Source of the DNA: Spirochaetaceae bacterium
GTDB taxonomy: Bacteria > Spirochaetota > Spirochaetia > Treponematales > Breznakiellaceae
Direction: 5' to 3'
DNA: 51,394 bases
NCBI GenBank assembly: GCA_031290855.1
Contig: JAISLM010000021.1
Location: 1-51,394, forward strand
Shown here: piece after piece, positions 2,822 through 47,100 of the stretch
Numbering within the stretch: position 1 is the stretch's first letter
Layout: every line of letters starts with the position of its first letter
Notes under the pieces: model-generated
What the model was told of the DNA's origin: nothing
The model's database searches: none
What the model saw: only the letters and a program-made list of their open reading frames with translations
Program-made: the position numbers and the translations under genes

Positions 2822-3161
2822 AGCATAATAATAGCACAGGTTTGTATCGACAGGCAGGGCAGCCAGTCCTTCCATCGCACCGCAAAGGTGTGTAACGGAA
2901 AACCCGTGCAAGCAAGGCTGTGCCGATGAGGAAGCGCTGACTACCGTTCAATCCGCTCCTGCCTGGCAAAGGAAAACCGCACCGTTGGAACGGCCTTACC
3001 ACCTCGCGAATTCACAGGCGTATATTAACCCGCCGGCGGGCGCTGGCGGATGATTGCCCGGCAGCCAAGCGCCCTGTCATCCTGAACGCTGGGGTAAGCT
3101 CGCCGGCGGACGCTTTCTCCAAAGAGTCCGATCTGTGGATGGCAGACAGTCCCCGCGTTTA

Positions 3162-3244
3162 TGCCGGCGGAGAGACTTGAACTCTCACGAAGTTGCCCTC
3201 AGCAGATTTTGAGTCTGCCGTGTCTGCCATTCCACCACGCCGGC
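3162..3244 (-). tRNA. tRNA-Leu (anticodon CAA)
   Basis: Manual cloverleaf: acceptor GCCGGCG/CGCCGGC, anticodon stem GCAGA/TCTGC with loop CTCAAAA, long variable arm, T-arm GAGAG-TTCAAGT-CTCTC. Confidence 0.9.
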
Positions 3245-3333
3245 TTATTGAAAGACTAGAGGGAAGACAAAAACATTTCAAGACTGCGGAGACCTTGACA
3301 ATACGCGGGGGCGTTGCTAGGGTTTTTAGAGAT

Positions 3334-3927
3334 ATGATGACCAGAGAGACAGACGGCGGGCGGGTCGGCGAAAACCGGAGAGCGCTCGTGCGAACCAGCC
3401 TGACGGCGCTTTTTGCCGCTCTCACGGCGGCGGGGACCTTCATCTCGATACCCCTGCTTTTTACGCCCGTACCTATAGTATTGCAGAATATGTTTGCCCT
3501 GCTGTCCGGCCTTCTGCTTGGGCCGGTGTCGGGCGGTGCGGCGGTGGGACTTTACCTGTTGGCCGGCGCGATAGGGCTGCCTGTCTTTGCCGGCGCGCGC
3601 GGCGGCTTCGTGCAGTTCCTGGGGCCGACGGGCGGTTTTCTGGCAGGCTACCTGTTGTCCGCGTTACTCGCCGGACTAATCGCGGGCGCGCCGCGAGCGG
3701 GCGTGGAGACCCCGTACTGGCGGCTTGTGCTGGCGGGACTTGCCGGTATGCTCGTAGTGTACGTTCCCGGCATAATCCAGTTGAAAGCGGTGTTGCGGGC
3801 CTCCTGGCCCGAAGCGGTAGGCGTAGGTTTTCTGCCCTTCATAGCGGGGGACGCGGTAAAGACGGCGATCGCCGTGGTTACGGCGGGCAGACTTAGAAAA
3901 AGCGTAGCCAAAGCGCTGAATGGATAG
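3334..3927 (+). CDS. bioY: BioY family biotin transporter S-component
   Basis: BioY-like blocks PVPIVLQNMFALLSGLLLGP and FLGPTGGFLAGYLL. The start was set at the ATG at 3334, because the longer ORF runs through the tRNA-Leu gene. Confidence 0.85.
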   Translation: MMTRETDGGRVGENRRALVRTSLTALFAALTAAGTFISIPLLFTPVPIVLQNMFALLSGLLLGPVSGGAAVGLYLLAGAIGLPVFAGARGGFVQFLGPTGGFLAGYLLSALLAGLIAGAPRAGVETPYWRLVLAGLAGMLVVYVPGIIQLKAVLRASWPEAVGVGFLPFIAGDAVKTAIAVVTAGRLRKSVAKALNG

Positions 3928-13232: not shown

Positions 13233-13285
13233 AAATGAATCTTCCCGCCCCGAAGGGTGGGGGAGCAGATCCCGCTGCGAATCAA
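13233..13285 (+). repeat. Family-A repeat, short hairpin form (A2)
   Basis: AAATGAATCTTCCCGCC-CCGAAG-GGTGGGGGAGCAGATCCCGCTGCGAATCAA. It has the same 5' and 3' blocks as A4/A5, with the ~110-nt interior replaced by a 6-nt loop. Confidence 0.8.
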
Positions 13286-13346
13286 CGACTGCCACAGGGC
13301 GGGGCTTTACAGTTTTTCCCGCTTGCGTCATGCTTAACGGAGCCGA

Positions 13347-14347: not shown

Positions 14348-14400
14348 AATAAACCTCCCCGCCGCAGAGCGGCGGGGGCGCAGACCCCCACTGCGAATAA
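14348..14400 (+). repeat. Family-A repeat, short hairpin form (A3)
   Basis: AATAAACCTCCCCGCCGC-AGA-GCGGCGGGGGCGCAGACCCCCACTGCGAATAA. Confidence 0.8.
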
Positions 14401-22800: not shown

Positions 22801-22966
22801 AAATGAACCTCCCCGCCACAAAACAGCGTCAAGCTTCCGCGTGTGTATTGTGCCACCGGCACAATACACAACGGCAAACCGCGATGCGGTTTGTGCCTGA
22901 CGTTTTATTTCCTGCCTAACCTTATAAGGAGGGACAAGGCGGGGGAGCAGACCCCACTGCGAATAA
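22801..22966 (+). repeat. Family-A repeat, long structured form (A4, 166 nt)
   Basis: Aligns end to end with 25692-25859. The closing stem is CCCCGCC/GGCGGGG. Internal hairpins are GTGTATTGTGCC-ACCG-GGCACAATACAC and GGCAAACCGC-GAT-GCGGTTTG(T)GCC. The 3' block is GGGGGAGCAGACCCCACTGCGAATAA. Confidence 0.9.
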
Positions 22967-23151
22967 ACGCGTCATATTGATACATATATCACTTTGAAAC
23001 AGTACGTTGTGTCAATCTTACACTATTGCTGATTAAACAGAAAATATAACGGATGGTTCCGCCGAGAATAAAACAGGGGTCAAGTCATGTAAATCTATGT
23101 GCAATAACAATTTAACATGAAATATATCCAACTGCCCGATATTTGTATGGT

Positions 23152-23167
23152 TGGCACGCTTGTTGCT
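23152..23167 (+). promoter_or_regulatory. Sigma-54 (RpoN) -24/-12 promoter element
   Basis: TGGCACGCTTGTTGCT matches TGGCACG-N4-TTGCW at every specified position. It lies ~29 nt upstream of the sigma-factor ATG. It overlaps a sigma-70-like TTGTAT(23143)-18 nt-TATAAT(23167). Confidence 0.7.
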
Positions 23168-23194
23168 ATAATATTAGCATTATAGGAGGTTTCC

Positions 23195-24070
23195 ATGAAT
23201 AGGAAACGAAATACAGTGAATAATAAACGTTCCGCGACGCCGGATGAAAATGTGTTGACTCTTTATTTAAAAGATATTAGCCGGATCCCCTTGCTAACCA
23301 GGGAAGAAGAAGATACCGTAGCACGTAAAGCTGCCGCGGGTGATCAAGCCGCGTTGAATACACTGGTCAGAGCGAATCTACGCTTTGTCGTCAATGTCGC
23401 AAAGCGGTACCAGGGGCAGGGTCTGCCTCTCACCGACCTGATAAGCGAAGGCAACATAGGCTTGATTAGCGCCGTAAGTCGTTTTGATGTTGATAAAGGT
23501 TATCATTTCATTTCATATGCGGTTTGGTGGATACGTCAGGCTATTCTGAAGGCCATATCCGAAAAATCGCGGATGATACGCTTGCCGATGAATCGTGCCG
23601 ATGAATTACTGCGCATACAGCGTACCAAAAACGAACTACAGAATGTTGAATCCTGCGAATCTGAAATAAACGAGATCGCCCGTACCCTTGATATGAGCGC
23701 CTCCCACGTCAACAGACTGCTGAACGTAAGCCGTGAAATGGTATCTCTCGATACACCGGTTTATTCCGAAAAAGATTCCTGTATCATAGCGGATCATATC
23801 GAGGATGACACCTACCAGTCGCCATACGAATTTGCCGAGCAAAGCCTTATGCGTGATGATATTGAAGCGGTTTTGGGAACACTGGACAAGAAAGAAGCCG
23901 CCGTAATCCGATGCCGCTTTGGAATCGGCGATTCGATTCAGATGTCCCTGCGGGAAATCGGCGACCGCTTCAATCTGACAAAGGAACGGATCAGGCAGAT
24001 CGAAAAAAAGGCGATCAAACGCCTGCAACATCCGGCTCGCCAGCAGATACTACAGGTTTATGTAGCGTAG
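23195..24070 (+). CDS. Sigma-70 family sigma factor, group-2 / RpoS-like
   Basis: AGGAGG RBS. Region 1.2 YLKDISRIPLLTREEE. Region 2 NLRFVVNVAKRYQGQGLPLTDLISEGNIGLISAVSRFD...YAVWWIRQAI. Region 4 LTKERIRQIEKKAIKRL. Confidence 0.9.
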   Translation: MNRKRNTVNNKRSATPDENVLTLYLKDISRIPLLTREEEDTVARKAAAGDQAALNTLVRANLRFVVNVAKRYQGQGLPLTDLISEGNIGLISAVSRFDVDKGYHFISYAVWWIRQAILKAISEKSRMIRLPMNRADELLRIQRTKNELQNVESCESEINEIARTLDMSASHVNRLLNVSREMVSLDTPVYSEKDSCIIADHIEDDTYQSPYEFAEQSLMRDDIEAVLGTLDKKEAAVIRCRFGIGDSIQMSLREIGDRFNLTKERIRQIEKKAIKRLQHPARQQILQVYVA

Positions 24071-24330
24071 CCAGGATAGACGCAGCTCGTCCAAATTGCA
24101 GCCGCAGCCGGTAGAAAATCCCCGCCGCGGCCATTTTTTTTCAAACAGGTGATACGGCAGTCCGTCCAAAACGAAATGCGCGAATGGCCGGGTATAACAA
24201 ATGTTAGACAGATGAAATTGCGATCCGTGGCGTAAACGGACGCGGATTTTTACGGGTTATTCGCCGGACTTTGCGTATCTCTGTCCGGGCCTTGCTTCAT
24301 AAAACATCCGCAAGGATTGTTTTTTAAGTT

Positions 24331-24403
24331 TGCCGCCAAAGAGAATCGAACTCTTGCCACAAGGATTTTCAGTCCTTTGCTCTACCAACTGAGCTACAGC
24401 GGC
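24331..24403 (-). tRNA. tRNA-Phe (anticodon GAA)
   Basis: Manual cloverleaf: GCCGCTG-TA-GCTCAGTTGGTAGAGC-A-AAGGA-CTGAAAA-TCCTT-GTGGC-AAGAG-TTCGATT-CTCTT-TGGCGGC-A. Confidence 0.9.
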
Positions 24404-24427: not shown

Positions 24428-24457
24428 ATCATAACAAACATTCAAAAAAGATGTCAA
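24428..24457 (-). promoter_or_regulatory. Candidate sigma-70 promoter for tRNA-Phe (TTGACA-18 nt-TATGAT)
   Basis: Minus-strand hexamers are at 24457-24452 and 24433-24428. The -10 element ends ~25 nt upstream of the mature tRNA 5' end. Confidence 0.5.
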
Positions 24458-24611
24458 CGGGCGGCTGCCCCGCCGTAAATTTGGGCCTTCCCGGGCCTGA
24501 ACCAGGGAGCTACGGGTTATAAGGCCATGCATCCTTTAGTATACATTATCCTGTTTGATATAAAATAAACTATAATAATGGAGGAATGTCAATAGAACGC
24601 ATTGGCTAATA

Positions 24612-24655
24612 ATTATTCCAGCCGAAATCAGGCTGCGGGGGTCTGATCCCCTCCT
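24612..24655 (-). repeat. Family-A-like 3' block in reverse orientation (A6, partial)
   Basis: The reverse complement GGAGGGGATCAGACCCCCGCAGCC...GGAATAA resembles GGGGGAGCAGACCCCACTGCGAATAA. It supplies the last codons and the stop of the transposase relic. Confidence 0.4.
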
Positions 24656-25160
24656 CACTGACAGGGAGGATTTCCAGTGCAGCCCTTTTCACGAATGAGC
24701 TTCAACAGGTTCTCTATCGCCCCGTTCAGCTTCCGGTTCAATTCAACCGGGTTATACAAGGCCCGCCTCCGCCTCAGTTCCGCCTTGCACTCCTCTGAAG
24801 TATCAGGCGACTTCGCCAGCCGGCGGAAGGGCGTCCGCGCTCCCTTCCCGTAAACTTTTTTGTACCACCCGCCCGCCTGTTTTTCTTTCGACACCGGCTT
24901 GAAGGACTGATACCGGTAATTGTACAGCGGACACAGGTAGCGGTACAGCTCCGCCAGACGGCGTACTCGGCGGACGTGTCGAACCGGAAGCAGCCGTCCG
25001 TTTTCCGCACGACATCGAAGTTCTTTTGCCCGGCGTAACAGTTATCATTTTTGTGACAGGGCCCGGTTCGCGTCGGCCCGGTATGCCGTCCAGGACACCA
25101 CCTGGGCAGGGGCTCGTTGATGAATTCCATGCCCTTACCGTAATGAGCGCCCTTAAGGGG
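24655..25160 (-). pseudogene. Relic of an rve/ISNCY-like DDE transposase (C-terminal part, frameshifted)
   Basis: Two frames give GMEFINEPL...HKNDNCYAGQKNFDVVRKTDGCFRFDT and then ...WYKKVYGKGARTPFRRLAKSPDTSEECKAELRRRRALYNPVELNRKL. I recognise these blocks from integrase-core transposases (family assignment from memory). The upstream 25161-25690 is too degenerate to read. Confidence 0.55.
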
Positions 25161-25691
25161 GGAAGGGAAGCTCCTCCTTTATGTCCAAAAAAGCGTCAAA
25201 ACCCGGCGCTTGGCCGCGTTTTTTGGCAGCGCCCGCTCTTCTGCCCGCCCCGAAAATACATCGCTCCCCGTCAAGGTTTCGCGGAATTGGCCGCCCGCCG
25301 GCCCTCTGCGGCGCGCCGCCGGATCAAAAGCGAGGAAACCGTCCTTCATCACGCCCCGGTCAAACCCGGTTCACACCGGGATTTGGCTCCGCAGGGGCGT
25401 GTACGCCGCCCGTATCGTGCCCACTACACGGATTTCCGGCTTCTTCCGCGCACCGGCAAACGGCGGATCCGCCCCGCCGGACTCGCTTCCCCAGGCAGTT
25501 TCTCCATCGCGGACCTTATGCCGTACCCGCCGTCCGCATCCGGAAACCCTGTCATCCCCCGTATCATCGGCACCGGCGGATTACAACCCGGCTCCTCCGC
25601 TGGATGTGTTTTGCAACTTCATTATACCGGACCTGGCGATGTCTTTCCTGCGTCCCGCTATTTTCGCTTTTCAGATTTGATTTGGCCGGGT

Positions 25692-25859
25692 AAATGAACC
25701 TCCCCGCCACAAAACAGCGTCAAGCGTACGCGTGTGGATTGTGCCGCCGGCGCAACCCACAACGGCAAACCGCTATGCGGTTTGTGCCTGACGTTTTACC
25801 TCCTGCCTAACCTGATAAGGAGGGACACAAGGCGGTGGAGCAGACTCCGCTGCGAATGA
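25692..25859 (+). repeat. Family-A repeat, long structured form (A5, 168 nt)
   Basis: By eye it differs from A4 by ~15 substitutions and one 2-nt indel. Confidence 0.9.
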
Positions 25860-26013: not shown

Positions 26014-26613
26014 ATGAGACATTTAAGAATGCTGAAACAGGGCGTGTGGTACGAAATCAGTACCCGCGTCAACAACCGGGAACCCCTGTTTCGCGGGGGC
26101 CGGGCCCCGGCTCTGTTCGACCGGGTGTTCCGTGAGACCGCGAACAGGTTTGTCTTCGCGGTCCGGGGCTTAAGTCTTGCCGGCGACCGGCTGGCCTTTT
26201 ACATCAGGCCCGCGGACGGGTTCGAGCTGCCCGCGATAATGAAATGGCTGAAGCAGACCTTCGCCATTAGGTACAACAGGGACAATGGACGGACGGGACA
26301 CCTGTGGGGCGACCGGTACTGGTCGCGGATCCTGGAAGGGGAGCCGCCGGACGGCGTGGAGGCGGCGGGGGACTCCCCGGCCCTCTGCGGGGTCAGACCC
26401 GTAATCGGGCAACGCCTCGCAGGACGCATGGCGGCGGGAGTCCCGCCGGACGGCGGCAGGGTCAGACCCCACAGCGGGGAACGCCTCGCCGGACGCATGG
26501 CGGCGGGGGACTCCCCGGCCCTCTGCGGGGTCAGACCCCGCAGAGGGGAACGGACTGCCGGGGCCGCGTTTTCCCGTCTATACCCACTTACCATCGCCCC
26601 GGCGCCCGGATAA
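26014..26613 (+). CDS. IS200/RAYT-like Y1-transposase homolog, probably inactive
   Basis: GVWYEISTRVNNREPLF and GHLWGDRYWSRIL match conserved blocks of REP-associated tyrosine transposases. The HUH position reads LAFYIRP. The C-terminal third is a 69-bp tandem repeat instead of the catalytic-Tyr region. There is no RBS. Confidence 0.55.
   Translation: MRHLRMLKQGVWYEISTRVNNREPLFRGGRAPALFDRVFRETANRFVFAVRGLSLAGDRLAFYIRPADGFELPAIMKWLKQTFAIRYNRDNGRTGHLWGDRYWSRILEGEPPDGVEAAGDSPALCGVRPVIGQRLAGRMAAGVPPDGGRVRPHSGERLAGRMAAGDSPALCGVRPRRGERTAGAAFSRLYPLTIAPAPG
26361..26560 (+). repeat. Tandem ~69-bp repeat (~3 units) built from palindromes
   Basis: GGTCAGACCCC...GGAACGCCTCGC.GGACGCATGGCGGCGGG recurs at 26391 and 26460. 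GCGGCGGGGGACTCCCCGGCCCTCTGCGGGGTCAGACCC recurs at 26362 and 26500. It includes the perfect palindrome CTCTGCGGGGTC-A-GACCCCGCAGAG (26521-26545). Confidence 0.85.
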
Positions 26614-44138: not shown

Positions 44139-47100
44139 CTAAAAATTCGATCCCGCCCGTGAAATCAACTCCTCGTCACGTTCCGTAAGCGGTATCTGCT
44201 TCTCTTTTTCATCGTATATCGTCATGTCAAGCGCAAGTCCGCGAAGTTCCTGCACAAGCACGTTAAAGGATTCCGGGATACCGGCGGTTGTGGAAGGCTC
44301 CCCCTTCACTATCGCTTCGTAGATTTTAGACCGTCCCGTCATATCGTCCGACTTTATCGTTAAAAGTTCCTGCAAAGTGTTTGCCGCGCCGTAGGCTTCC
44401 AGCGCCCACACCTCCATCTCGCCCAGACGCTGGCCGCCGAACTGCGCCTTACCGCCGAGAGGCTGCTGGGTTACCAAGGAGTAGGGCCCTGTCGAGCGGG
44501 CGTGCATCTTGTCGTCAACCAGATGGTGCAGCTTGAGAAAGTAGATAACCCCGCAGAATATCGGGTTTATGAACGGCTCGCCCGTGCGCCCGTCCCGCAG
44601 AATCGTCTTTGAATTGGAAGGCAGACCGGCCTCTTTCAGCTTTTCTTCAATCTCCTCGGCAGACGGAGACTGGAATACCGGCGCGGAGTACCATTCGTTC
44701 AACTTCACGCCTGCCCAGCCAAGCTCGGTTTCCAGCAACTGGCCTATATTCATGCGGCTCGGTACACCGAGCGGTGTCAGGCAGAGGTCGAGCGGTGTGC
44801 CGTCTTCCATGTACGGCATATCCTCTTCCGGCAAAATTCGGGCAACGACGCCCTTGTTGCCGTGCCTGCCGGCCATCTTGTCGCCCTCTCGCAGCTTCCG
44901 CTTTGCGGCAATCAACACCTTCACCACCTCCTCAACACCCGGGTTCAGGTCATCCTTCTCACTTCGGCGGAGACGCTGAATATCTATCACCGTCCCGTCA
45001 ACGCCGTGCGGGGCGCGCAGCGACGAATCGCGCACCTCCTTGGCCTTCTCGCCGAAAATCGAGTTTAGAAGCTTAAATTCCGGCGTCGTCTCGGTTTCGC
45101 GTTTCGGCGTAACTTTACCTACCAGAATATCGCCGTCCCGTACTTTGGACCCGACGCAGATTATGCCCTCCGCGTCCAGGTTATCAAGGCTCTTTTCGCT
45201 TGCGTTAGGGATATCACGCGTTATCTTTTCCGGCCCCAGCTTGGTTTCCCTCACCTCGGTTATGAATTCCTTTATGTGTATCGACGTGAACATATCATCC
45301 TTTACCACGCGCCGGGAAATCAAAATCGAATCCTCGTAGTTGTACCCGTTCCACGGCATAAAGCCGACAAGCACATTCCGGCCCAAAGCCAGTTCGCCGT
45401 CCTCGGTCGCCGGGCCGTCCGCTATCACCTGCCCTTCTGTAACCTTGTCGCCGGGAAGCACTATCGGACGCTGATTGTAACAGGTATCCTGATTCGTGCG
45501 TTGAAACTTTATCAGCGGATACTTGTCAACAGCATTCTTGTCCTGATCCGGCGTTACATCTATAAGCGTCGCGGTAACCCTCTTGACTACGCCTGAACGT
45601 TTCGCCTTTACCAGTACGCCGGAATCGTAGGCGCACTTCTCCTCCATGCCGGTTCCCACCCGCGGGGCTTCGGGGAACACCAGCGGCACCGCCTGCCTTT
45701 GCATGTTGGAACCCATCAAAGCGCGGTTTGCGTCATCGTGTTCAAGGAACGGGATAAGGCTTGCCGAAACGGAGATAATTTGCTTGGGCGACACGTCCAT
45801 GTAATGAAGGTCTTCCGGCGTGCGCGTAGTATAGTCTCCCTGCCTCCGGCACGAAACCTGCTCGTCCACAAACGAACCGTCCTTGTTCAGCCTGGCGGAA
45901 GCCTGCGCTATGTAATACTTGTCCTCTTCAATCGCGGAGAGGTACTCAATCTGGGCCGTCGCTTTGCCGCCGGCAACCTTGCGGTACGGCGTTTCCAGGA
46001 AGCCGTAATCGTTCACCTTTGTATAGTTTGCCAGCGACACGATTAGGCCTATGTTCGGACCTTCCGGCGTCTCTATAGGGCACATCCTGCCGTAATGCGT
46101 GTAGTGTACGTCACGTACCTCGAAACCCGCCCTTTCGCGGGAAAGCCCTCCCGGTCCAAGCGCGTTAAGACGGCGCTTGTGGGTAAGCTCCGCCAGCGGG
46201 TTTACCTGATCCATGAACTGGGAAAGCTGGCTTGAACCGAAGAATTCTTTTATCGCTGCCACAAGCGGCTTTATCGAAATAATATCCTGGGGCTTTATCG
46301 TATCCGTTTCTTTAAGGCTCATACGCTCGCGGGCAATACGTTCCATGCGGCTGAACGCCGTTTTGATGATGTTTGACAGCAGCTCGCCGACGGAACGGAC
46401 GCGGCGGTTGCCCAGATGGTCTATATCGTCGGCGTTTTCAAAACCGGCGTACACTTTGATAAGGAATTTCATCGTAGCGATGATGTCCGGCCTTGTCAGA
46501 ACAGTCTCTTTAAGAGGCGGTTCGTGATCAAACTTCTTGTTCAGCTTGTAACGCCCAACACGTCCCAGATCGTAGCGCCGCGAAGTAAAGAACATTCCGG
46601 TAAGATCCTTCTTTGCCTGTTCGTACGTTACCGATTCGCCGGGAGACAGCACGCTGTACACATGGGCAAGGGCTTCCTCCTCGGTAGGTTCGTCATGGTC
46701 CTTGTTTTCACAGGGAAATTTGATCGCCTCACGCTCAAAACAGTTGATCAGTATCGGGGAATCCAGTGAATCCGGCGCTTCAAAGTTGATAAGTTTAACC
46801 TGCGTAACGCCGTTTTCCAAAAGCTCATCAACATTGTGCGGGTGGAGTTTCTCGCCCGCCGGGTACAGCTTCTTCCGCGCGTCCGCGCCTTCCTCTTCCG
46901 GGCCGGAAACCATGACGGGAACAGCGAGCACACGCCCGGTAAACCGTTCTCTCGTCTCGTCATCATCCTTTACGTCGCACGTTTCCACCGTGTAAAACGC
47001 CTTGATTATGTCCTCGCGGGTCGAAAACCCTAAGGCCCGGAGGAAAATGGTGCCAAGAATACGTTTTTTACGGTCAACCTTGGCGTAAATAAGCTCACGC

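Follow-up and report, generated by a model that had tools for sequence, protein, structure and literature searches.

In Borrelia burgdorferi the synthesis of one alternative sigma factor is governed by another. RpoN (sigma-54) binds a near-consensus −24/−12 element upstream of rpoS, and Rrp2 activates the promoter (PMC3037356, PMC1976401). This activation is enhancer-independent, with purified Rrp2 showing no binding within 238 bp upstream (PMC1976401), and a further protein, BosR, binds direct repeats adjoining the rpoS promoter (PMC3037356). A large comparative sigma-54 survey names Borrelia (sigma-S) as the sole case of control via a second sigma factor, apart from an unconfirmed prediction for enterobacteria (sigma-32) (PMC3162934), and according to a review of Leptospira sigma factors Leptospira interrogans is without RpoS. 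The available portion of Additional file 7 of Francke et al, which gives the genes behind predicted sigma-54 promoters, contains no spirochete sigma-factor entry. Our search of the accessible full-text literature for a sigma-54-to-sigma cascade in spirochetes yielded only Borrelia papers, which is no proof of absence elsewhere. For TP1012, which we take to be a sigma factor gene of Treponema pallidum, no paper treating it as a sigma factor was found. Here we analyze in silico a candidate sigma-54 promoter in front of a sigma-70-family gene on contig JAISLM010000021.1 of a Spirochaetaceae bacterium (assembly GCA_031290855.1, positions 1 to 51,394 of the forward strand). This whole stretch of 51,394 bp is referred to as the window.

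The −24/−12 element TGGCACGCTTGTTGCT is located on the plus strand at positions 23152-23167. It matches the consensus at 12 of 12 positions, and within TGGCAC-N5-TTGCW the GG (23153-23154) and the GC (23165-23166) are spaced by exactly 10 bp. From the C of the GC element (23166) to the A of the start codon of the sigma gene (23195) there are 29 nucleotides (nt), and a Shine-Dalgarno sequence AGGAGG can be read in between (23184-23189, plus strand), 5 nt upstream of the ATG. All these coordinates were given correctly in the original prediction, and its claim of an exact consensus match holds as well: TGGCACG-N4-TTGCW occurs a single time in the 51,394 bp, both strands considered, and not at all in 100 dinucleotide-preserving shuffles of the window (none expected). 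If the pattern is relaxed to at most two mismatches, the window contains four matches versus approximately eight expected, so that the exact match alone is informative. The sole other window match of at least 10/12 (position 45847, 10/12, GG and GC intact) was rejected as a second sigma-54 site; it is situated inside a gene of 1194 amino acids, on the opposite strand. Standard sigma-54 promoter geometry, counting 12 nt past the C of the GC element, predicts a transcription start at 23177-23179 on the plus strand and a leader of approximately 17 nt.

To this single element we can add a comparison of orthologous loci. One scan of the GTDB species genomes led to 80 loci with 60-95% protein identity, from Treponema, Breznakiella, Leadbettera, Marispirochaeta, Sediminispirochaeta, Spirochaeta and many other Spirochaetia. 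A promoter was called if TGGCAY-N5-TTGCW was matched at no fewer than nine of 12 positions with GG and GC intact. Under this rule 78 of the 80 loci have the element immediately before the sigma gene and in the orientation of the gene, and together with the window they make up a set of 79 sequences. The distance from GC to the start codon has a median of 33 nt and falls between 20 and 45 nt in 65 of the 79 sequences, and most orthologous loci possess a GGAGG-type Shine-Dalgarno sequence downstream of the promoter. A 79th locus (L053) carries the element with a GC to GT variant, accompanied by one of the upstream dyads described below, 105 bp upstream.

The sequence logo of the 79 motif-anchored sequences reads TTGGCAYR-N4-TTGCW, with approximately 0-0.3 bit in the flanking columns. 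Positions outside the selection criteria are nearly invariant, too: A at −22 and T at −14 are present in 79/79 sequences, C at −23 in 71/79 and T at −15 in 73/79. The motif is also specific for this gene. The scan covered 1.22 million positions in about 610 kb of loci and gave 66 matches of at least 11/12, 64 of which are the sigma-gene promoter, and all 22 perfect matches in the scanned loci belong to it. The element is kept across genomes of 26-67% G+C and down to 41% protein identity, and it recurs in six of seven further lineages beyond the 80 loci, which were fetched separately. Among the cultured carriers are Breznakiella homolactica, Leadbettera azotonutricia, Treponema primitia ZAS-10, Treponema sp. 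TIM-1 and Spirochaeta cellobiosiphila. Such conservation in the same place while the flanks vary (phylogenetic footprinting), together with the conserved dyads upstream, strongly supports the promoter, and judged by these sequences the −24/−12 motif upstream of the sigma gene is no chance match. The central reading of the original prediction, a sigma-54 promoter driving a sigma factor, thus receives strong support from the footprint (78/80 loci, the GT variant and 6/7 lineages).

Some loci deviate in the arrangement of the promoter. It is placed 80-200 nt from the start codon in L024, L028, L039, L049, L065 and L081-L083, compared to the usual distance of about 30 nt, which implies long leaders in these loci, with a possible role in control after transcription. 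L037 and L040 offer at best a poorer motif (TGGAACG...TTGCC), approximately 170 nt from the start codon.

A second conserved block becomes apparent about 130-185 bp upstream of the promoter if the window is aligned with its five closest relatives, and k-mer enrichment over all loci pointed to a palindrome. The palindrome TGTGTCA-N3-TGACACA (at least 11/14) has 74 matches in the 25 kb covering −350 to −30 versus 8 in the remaining 625 kb, an enrichment of roughly 230-fold. We refined it to a position weight matrix (PWM) with the consensus TGKGTCA-WWW-TGACMCA and a threshold of one background hit per 40 kb. With this matrix at least one dyad is detected in 78 of the 80 loci, and two or more in 58. 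Of 66 pairs of neighboring sites, 59 have a spacing of exactly 40 bp and three a spacing of 41 bp. Counted from the predicted start, the centres of the dyads cluster between −120 and −240, in groups at about −130, −170 and −210 to −230.

In the window the two dyads are likewise 40 bp apart, centre to centre. The distal dyad CGCGTCATATTGATACA (22968-22984, PWM score 17.2) fits TGKGTCA-N3-TGACMCA and is part of the block conserved among the five closest relatives; the proximal dyad TGTGTCAATCTTACACT (23008-23024, PWM score 14.1) is conserved in L001-L005 and has its centre approximately 162 bp upstream of the predicted start. Between the dyads and the promoter there is an A+T-rich block ATAACAATTTAAC (23104-23116) which is nearly invariant in the six closest sequences. 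We found no recognisable motif for this block across the 79-sequence set, and a role as a DNA-bending site is speculative. We also considered the conserved upstream block as a sigma-70 promoter and rejected this idea, as it contains no properly spaced hexamer pair on either strand. The dyad pair upstream of the sigma gene is new here and was previously unnoticed.

Promoter and dyads reappear together in distant lineages. Three loci with 60% protein identity (L081-L083) have a perfect promoter, a leader of about 190 nt and dyads. L084 (44% identity) shows a 10/12 promoter with one perfect dyad, and L089, from a genome with only 26% G+C and 41% identity, a perfect promoter with two dyads 41 bp apart. 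In Spirochaeta cellobiosiphila (L090, identity not computed) the promoter matches at 10/12 and two dyads are 40 bp apart. The same spacing of 40 bp is seen for the two dyads in the complete genomes of Breznakiella and Leadbettera (L086 and L087, 63-68% identity), with promoters of 12/12 and 11/12, respectively. In L084, L086, L087, L089 and L090 the divergent upstream neighbour is groES (Cpn10), and the dyad-containing intergenic region is therefore common to groES and the sigma gene.

The dyads are in tandem, have a fixed, roughly helical-repeat spacing and stand 100-250 bp upstream, which is the classic layout of NtrC-type enhancers; we therefore read them as probable binding sites of a cognate AAA+ activator. 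NtrC-type promoters such as enteric glnAp2 share with the present locus the GG-N10-GC element, tandem 17-bp dyads 100-200 bp upstream that face roughly one side of the helix, and A+T-rich DNA in between. The dyad bound by NtrC is TGCACCA-N3-TGGTGCA. Here, in contrast, the dyad is TGKGTCA-N3-TGACMCA, the spacing is 40 bp and the promoter serves a sigma factor gene instead of a metabolic operon.

Taken together, we assign a probability of about 85% to the reading that a functional, enhancer-dependent sigma-54 promoter precedes the sigma gene. The following mechanism can be proposed on this basis. RpoN-polymerase would bind the −24/−12 element at 23152-23167 as a closed complex. An AAA+ activator, most likely a response regulator of the NtrC/Rrp2 type with a Fis-type helix-turn-helix, would occupy the two 17-bp dyads as dimers and oligomerise; the A+T-rich DNA of approximately 140 bp in between would be looped out and the promoter melted near 23178 at the expense of ATP. 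The short leader and AGGAGG could then provide for efficient translation of the 291-residue group-2-like sigma factor, which would redirect core polymerase to a regulon of its own, presumably with promoters of the −35/−10 type. The whole would represent a self-contained sigma-54 unit whose sole product is a second sigma factor.

Several observations weigh against this reading. One locus (L054, a single-cell genome, 3880-4010) contains a sigma homologue which is cut at its N-terminus, starts at residue 21 and has neither a start codon nor a promoter. It directly follows the terminator hairpin of another gene, and a truncation or an assembly join is likely. In the seventh of the further lineages (L088, gene at 3001-3888 in a genome of 31% G+C, 42% identity) the upstream region is without a −24/−12 element and without dyads; this locus may mark the boundary of the module, represent a paralogue, or belong to a lineage in which sigma-54 control was lost. 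The L088 gene is followed by an ABC (ATP-binding cassette) transporter of the glycine-betaine type (OpuAC). The dyads could serve a regulator other than the activator, and a perfect extended −10 element, TGCTATAAT, which overlaps the −12 element, could drive sigma-70-dependent transcription. Finally, six-frame searches for GAFTGA, the RpoN box and activator Walker A motifs revealed no rpoN, no RpoN box and no GAFTGA-type activator in the 51-kb window or within 4 kb on either side of the gene in the 80 loci, and a Pfam analysis of ±10 kb in the two complete genomes (Breznakiella, Leadbettera) detected neither rpoN nor an activator. We therefore infer rather than locate the trans-acting parts, that is rpoN and the activator in this genome, and the same holds for the dyads as activator sites, the start point and the regulon of the sigma factor. 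No factor besides sigma-54 is known to select TGGCAC-N5-TTGC, and together with the conservation of the motif this supports the trans-acting parts indirectly, as do the Fis-type two-component sigma-54 activators of Treponema denticola (PMC3162934, Additional file 2).

As to the dyads, one may argue that they serve as operators for an independent regulator, such as a CRP/FNR-like or another dimeric helix-turn-helix protein, which modulates the promoter, and that the activator acts from solution. Rrp2 does so at the Borrelia rpoS promoter, which it activates enhancer-free and without binding to the 238 bp upstream (PMC1976401), and the binding of BosR beside the same promoter (PMC3037356) gives a precedent for a second protein. 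The TGTGT-N7-ACACA arrangement is moreover loosely similar to a CRP palindrome. Nevertheless, we judge this explanation to be unlikely: centres at −120 to −240, in tandem at a fixed 40 bp and together with the promoter in 78/80 loci, are what is known from classic NtrC-type enhancers (PMC1976401), and two-component sigma-54 activators of the Fis type are encoded in Treponema denticola (PMC3162934, Additional file 2).

The extended −10-like element TGCTATAAT (23164-23172, plus strand) requires a closer look. The original prediction had pointed to an overlapping sigma-70-like promoter, and in the window it is indeed present: TATAAT at 23167-23172 is preceded, with an 18-nt spacer, by a weak −35 hexamer TTGTAT at 23143-23148 which fits TTGACA at three of six positions; our promoter scan omitted the pair because of this low −35 score. 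Yet it is not conserved. A TATAAT in the register of the window occurs in one of the 79 sequences, a match of at least 5/6 in eight, and a suitably spaced −35-like hexamer in 12. The five closest relatives show TTGAAT, TATACT, TATATA, TATATT and TTTGTT at the TATAAT position, and in all of them the −24/−12 element is intact. All loci are rich in A+T between −11 and −3, and a −10-like hexamer anywhere from −12 to −5 is found in 29/79 sequences compared to 4/79 in a control segment. This would be compatible with an alternative in which housekeeping sigma-70, acting from TGCTATAAT and the weak TTGTAT, accounts for the main transcription here, and the sigma-54 element is secondary or occluding. 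A sigma-70-dependent rpoS transcript has reportedly also been described in Borrelia by Lybecker and Samuels in 2007. We consider this alternative improbable in view of the register seen only in the window, the poor −35 with its suboptimal spacer, the variation among the nearest relatives and the visible selection on the sigma-54 element and the dyads. Sigma-70-dependent basal expression may take place in the window genome, although the overlapping −10 is not under selection. The position of the start site cannot separate the two promoters because both predict approximately the same one, 23178-23179 (12 nt past the C of GC for sigma-54, 7 nt past TATAAT for sigma-70).

The gene controlled by the proposed sigma-54 promoter (23195-24070, plus strand) encodes a sigma-70-family protein of 291 residues. 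The Pfam families PF00140, PF04542, PF04539 and PF04545 (Sigma70_r1_2, r2, r3, r4 set) score above their gathering thresholds and Sigma70_r1_1 is missing, which amounts to a group-2-like architecture with regions 1.2, 2, 3 and 4 but not 1.1. Every matching NCBIfam equivalog model remains under its curated cut-off. This concerns RpoD (NF004208/NF006666, 283.8 bits versus 555 and 277.1 versus 572), with alignments limited to the C-terminal part of the models (240 of 631 positions in the one with the 555-bit cut-off), as well as RpoS (TIGR02394/NF004207, 255.7 versus 378.7 bits and 242.3 versus 394). Compared to structures in the PDB, the protein is closest to Firmicute SigA (230-240 bits), followed by E. 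coli RpoD (194) and RpoS (183). The domain set, the scores below both kinds of cut-off and the closeness to SigA/RpoD lead us to regard it, on sequence grounds, as a truncated RpoD-related, group-2-like sigma factor which is not a proteobacterial RpoS and not plausible as a housekeeping sigma either. The original prediction had called it RpoS-like. This is appropriate for the architecture of regions 1.2, 2, 3 and 4, which the protein shares with proteobacterial RpoS (sigma-38) and other group-2 factors along with the absence of region 1.1 and a similar length, but not for the family assignment, as the protein fails the RpoS equivalog cut-offs and is, among solved structures, slightly nearer to the primary sigmas. 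In regions 2.4 and 4.2 the segments that recognise DNA are largely conserved with respect to E. coli sigma-70 (WWIRQ, KERIRQIE), suggesting target promoters of the −10/−35 type.

Public annotations would favor a different view, namely that the protein is the housekeeping sigma RpoD and the sigma-54 motif irrelevant. Homologues are labelled “RpoD/SigA” or “primary sigma factor” in the databases, and the best NCBIfam and PDB matches are RpoD/SigA. However, a protein of 291 residues without region 1.1, reaching 284 of the 555 bits required and aligning with the C-terminal part of the model only, hardly fits this label. Spirochetes are known to possess a separate RpoD of about 600 residues. A conserved sigma-54 promoter, which has no basal activity, would also be hard to reconcile with an essential housekeeping gene. 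We find the housekeeping view scarcely credible. The lack of region 1.1 and the failed RpoD cut-offs rather fit an alternative sigma factor suited to all-or-none switching by sigma-54.

The closest relatives of the protein (91-97% identity) come from spirochete metagenome-assembled genomes of the termite-gut group, labelled Spirochaetaceae or Treponema. Identities of 63-68% are reached with Breznakiella homolactica, Treponema primitia, Treponema sp. TIM-1 and Leadbettera azotonutricia, and overall the identity to proteins from termite-gut Treponema, Breznakiella and other Spirochaetia ranges from 60 to 97%. These relatives assign the window to a treponeme of the termite-gut type. RpoS of Borrelia (BB0771) is not among 150 representatives at 50% identity, nor in three homologue lists. 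Homologue searches with P0132 and with five A+T-rich representatives, the latter candidates chosen by composition, returned only other Spirochaetota; the profile search covered 1.84 billion representatives.

How does the locus compare with the Rrp2-RpoN-RpoS pathway of Borrelia? Both have a −24/−12 element directly upstream of a short gene for an RpoD-related alternative sigma factor, a short leader and a single sigma output, and in this sense the defining trait of the Borrelia-type cascade, a sigma-54 promoter directly driving an alternative sigma gene of the sigma-70 family, is found here. The locus differs in the conserved upstream dyad pair 40 bp apart, whereas Rrp2 in Borrelia needs no enhancer; an enhancer-free activation by Rrp2 aided by BosR is thus not what these enhancer-like dyads resemble. 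A BosR repeat of the TAAATTAAAT type, as present in Borrelia, was not seen here, though no search for one was made. The hosts differ as well, with a free-living or gut-symbiotic spirochete on one side and a vector-borne pathogen on the other. In our view the circuit logic is the same as in the sigma-54-to-sigma cascade of Borrelia, the conserved enhancer is the notable variant feature, and enhancer-free activation is a peculiarity of Borrelia which does not define the circuit logic.

A further aspect is the origin of the locus. The original prediction had described the gene and its flanks as A+T-rich, bracketed by a structured repeat, a tRNA and insertion sequence (IS) remnants, and had taken this as a hint of an acquired module. 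The composition is borne out: the G+C content is 47.7% for the sigma gene and 35% for the DNA from the dyads to the ATG, compared to 55.7% for the window. The bracketing elements are present, too. A structured repeat of about 165 nt (22801-22964, −73 kcal/mol, z = −5.8) abuts the distal dyad, and tRNA-Phe (24331-24403, minus strand) is convergent with the sigma gene. A second copy of the repeat (25692-25857, 90% identical over 166 nt) is located approximately 150 nt upstream of an IS200-like Y1_Tnp open reading frame (26014-26613). This neighborhood is why the repeat looks like a mobile element of the REP/MITE type (repetitive extragenic palindrome/miniature inverted-repeat transposable element). 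Its last 30 nt or so (22938-22967) recur at 1424-1453, 13259-13287 and 14371-14400.

A recent horizontal acquisition of the sigma gene with its flanks would account for a gene 8 G+C points under the window, for a gene order shared with none of the 80 loci, and for a mobile-looking repeat upstream, with its copy beside the Y1_Tnp reading frame, and a tRNA downstream. Against this stands that in 71 of 78 loci the sigma orthologue has a lower G+C content than the DNA around it, the average difference being 3.7 points; the low G+C content is hence a trait of the family. The closest proteins belong to the same termite-gut spirochete group and identity declines with taxonomy, the regulatory module is the same everywhere, and the repeat, which is absent from the relatives in the alignment, ends just before the distal dyad, as expected for a local insertion or rearrangement. 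We therefore hold recent acquisition to be very improbable, and this part of the original prediction is not supported. The unshared gene order, together with a repeat at the dyad whose copy accompanies a Y1_Tnp reading frame, speaks for a local rearrangement with insertion of the repeat and against an import of the sigma gene.

The neighbors themselves are variable. Those of the window (infA, an M28 peptidase gene, tRNA-Phe and polA) are absent from the surroundings of the orthologue in all 80 loci. In many lineages nusB, a tetratricopeptide repeat (TPR) gene and groES on the minus strand are divergent from the sigma gene on the plus strand, a block that is kept in L086 and L087; in others a DinG-like helicase gene is found upstream and pyruvate phosphate dikinase downstream. 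Conserved synteny was accordingly rejected as evidence for an operon, since the unit looks monocistronic and its neighbors vary. The sigma unit appears to be monocistronic in the window, where a putative intrinsic terminator follows at 24101-24141 (plus strand) with a stem GCCGC..GCGGC and then UUUUUUUU (T8); the assignment is tentative, the overall z-score being not significant.

Some additional features of the window are reported for completeness. A near-consensus sigma-70 promoter (TTGACA, 18 nt, TG-TATGAT, 11/12) on the minus strand at 24428-24457 is placed to drive tRNA-Phe (24403-24331), and its −35 end coincides in part with a hairpin resembling a terminator (24475-24455, also minus strand). 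The stretch from 24600 to 25700, between tRNA-Phe and the second repeat copy, has 58-66% G+C and contains only overlapping reading frames, two of which were tested and had no Pfam match; it may be degraded mobile DNA. With Rfam, no known RNA element was detected in the leader or the intergenic region, and the window gave only tRNAs and an unrelated flavin mononucleotide (FMN) riboswitch (RF00050, 35985-36140, minus strand, 88 bits, above the gathering score).

Judged from the sequences compared, the two dyads, the sigma-54 promoter and the alternative sigma gene constitute a pan-Spirochaetia regulatory module, and the circuit in which one sigma factor switches another seems to be widespread and not a specialty of Borrelia. 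One may go further and propose that a cascade from sigma-54 to an alternative sigma factor is ancestral and nearly universal in Spirochaetia, with the RpoS of Borrelia as a divergent descendant. The ancestral form would have been enhancer-dependent via a dedicated activator of the 40-bp-spaced TGKGTCA-N3-TGACMCA dyads, and Borrelia would have lost the enhancer in the course of genome reduction and recruited BosR; we see the chances of this scenario as evenly balanced. The dyad offers a concrete motif for identifying the cognate activator and its regulon, and Treponema primitia, Breznakiella homolactica, Leadbettera azotonutricia and Spirochaeta cellobiosiphila are cultivable organisms suited to tests of enhancer-dependent activation. 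In hundreds of database entries the name “RpoD/SigA primary sigma factor” probably stands for an alternative sigma factor. The Lyme disease spirochete uses RpoN-RpoS as its central virulence switch. The same wiring, with an enhancer, in dozens of free-living and gut spirochetes would recast this cascade as an old circuit of stress response and adaptation, which Borrelia may have inherited and simplified.

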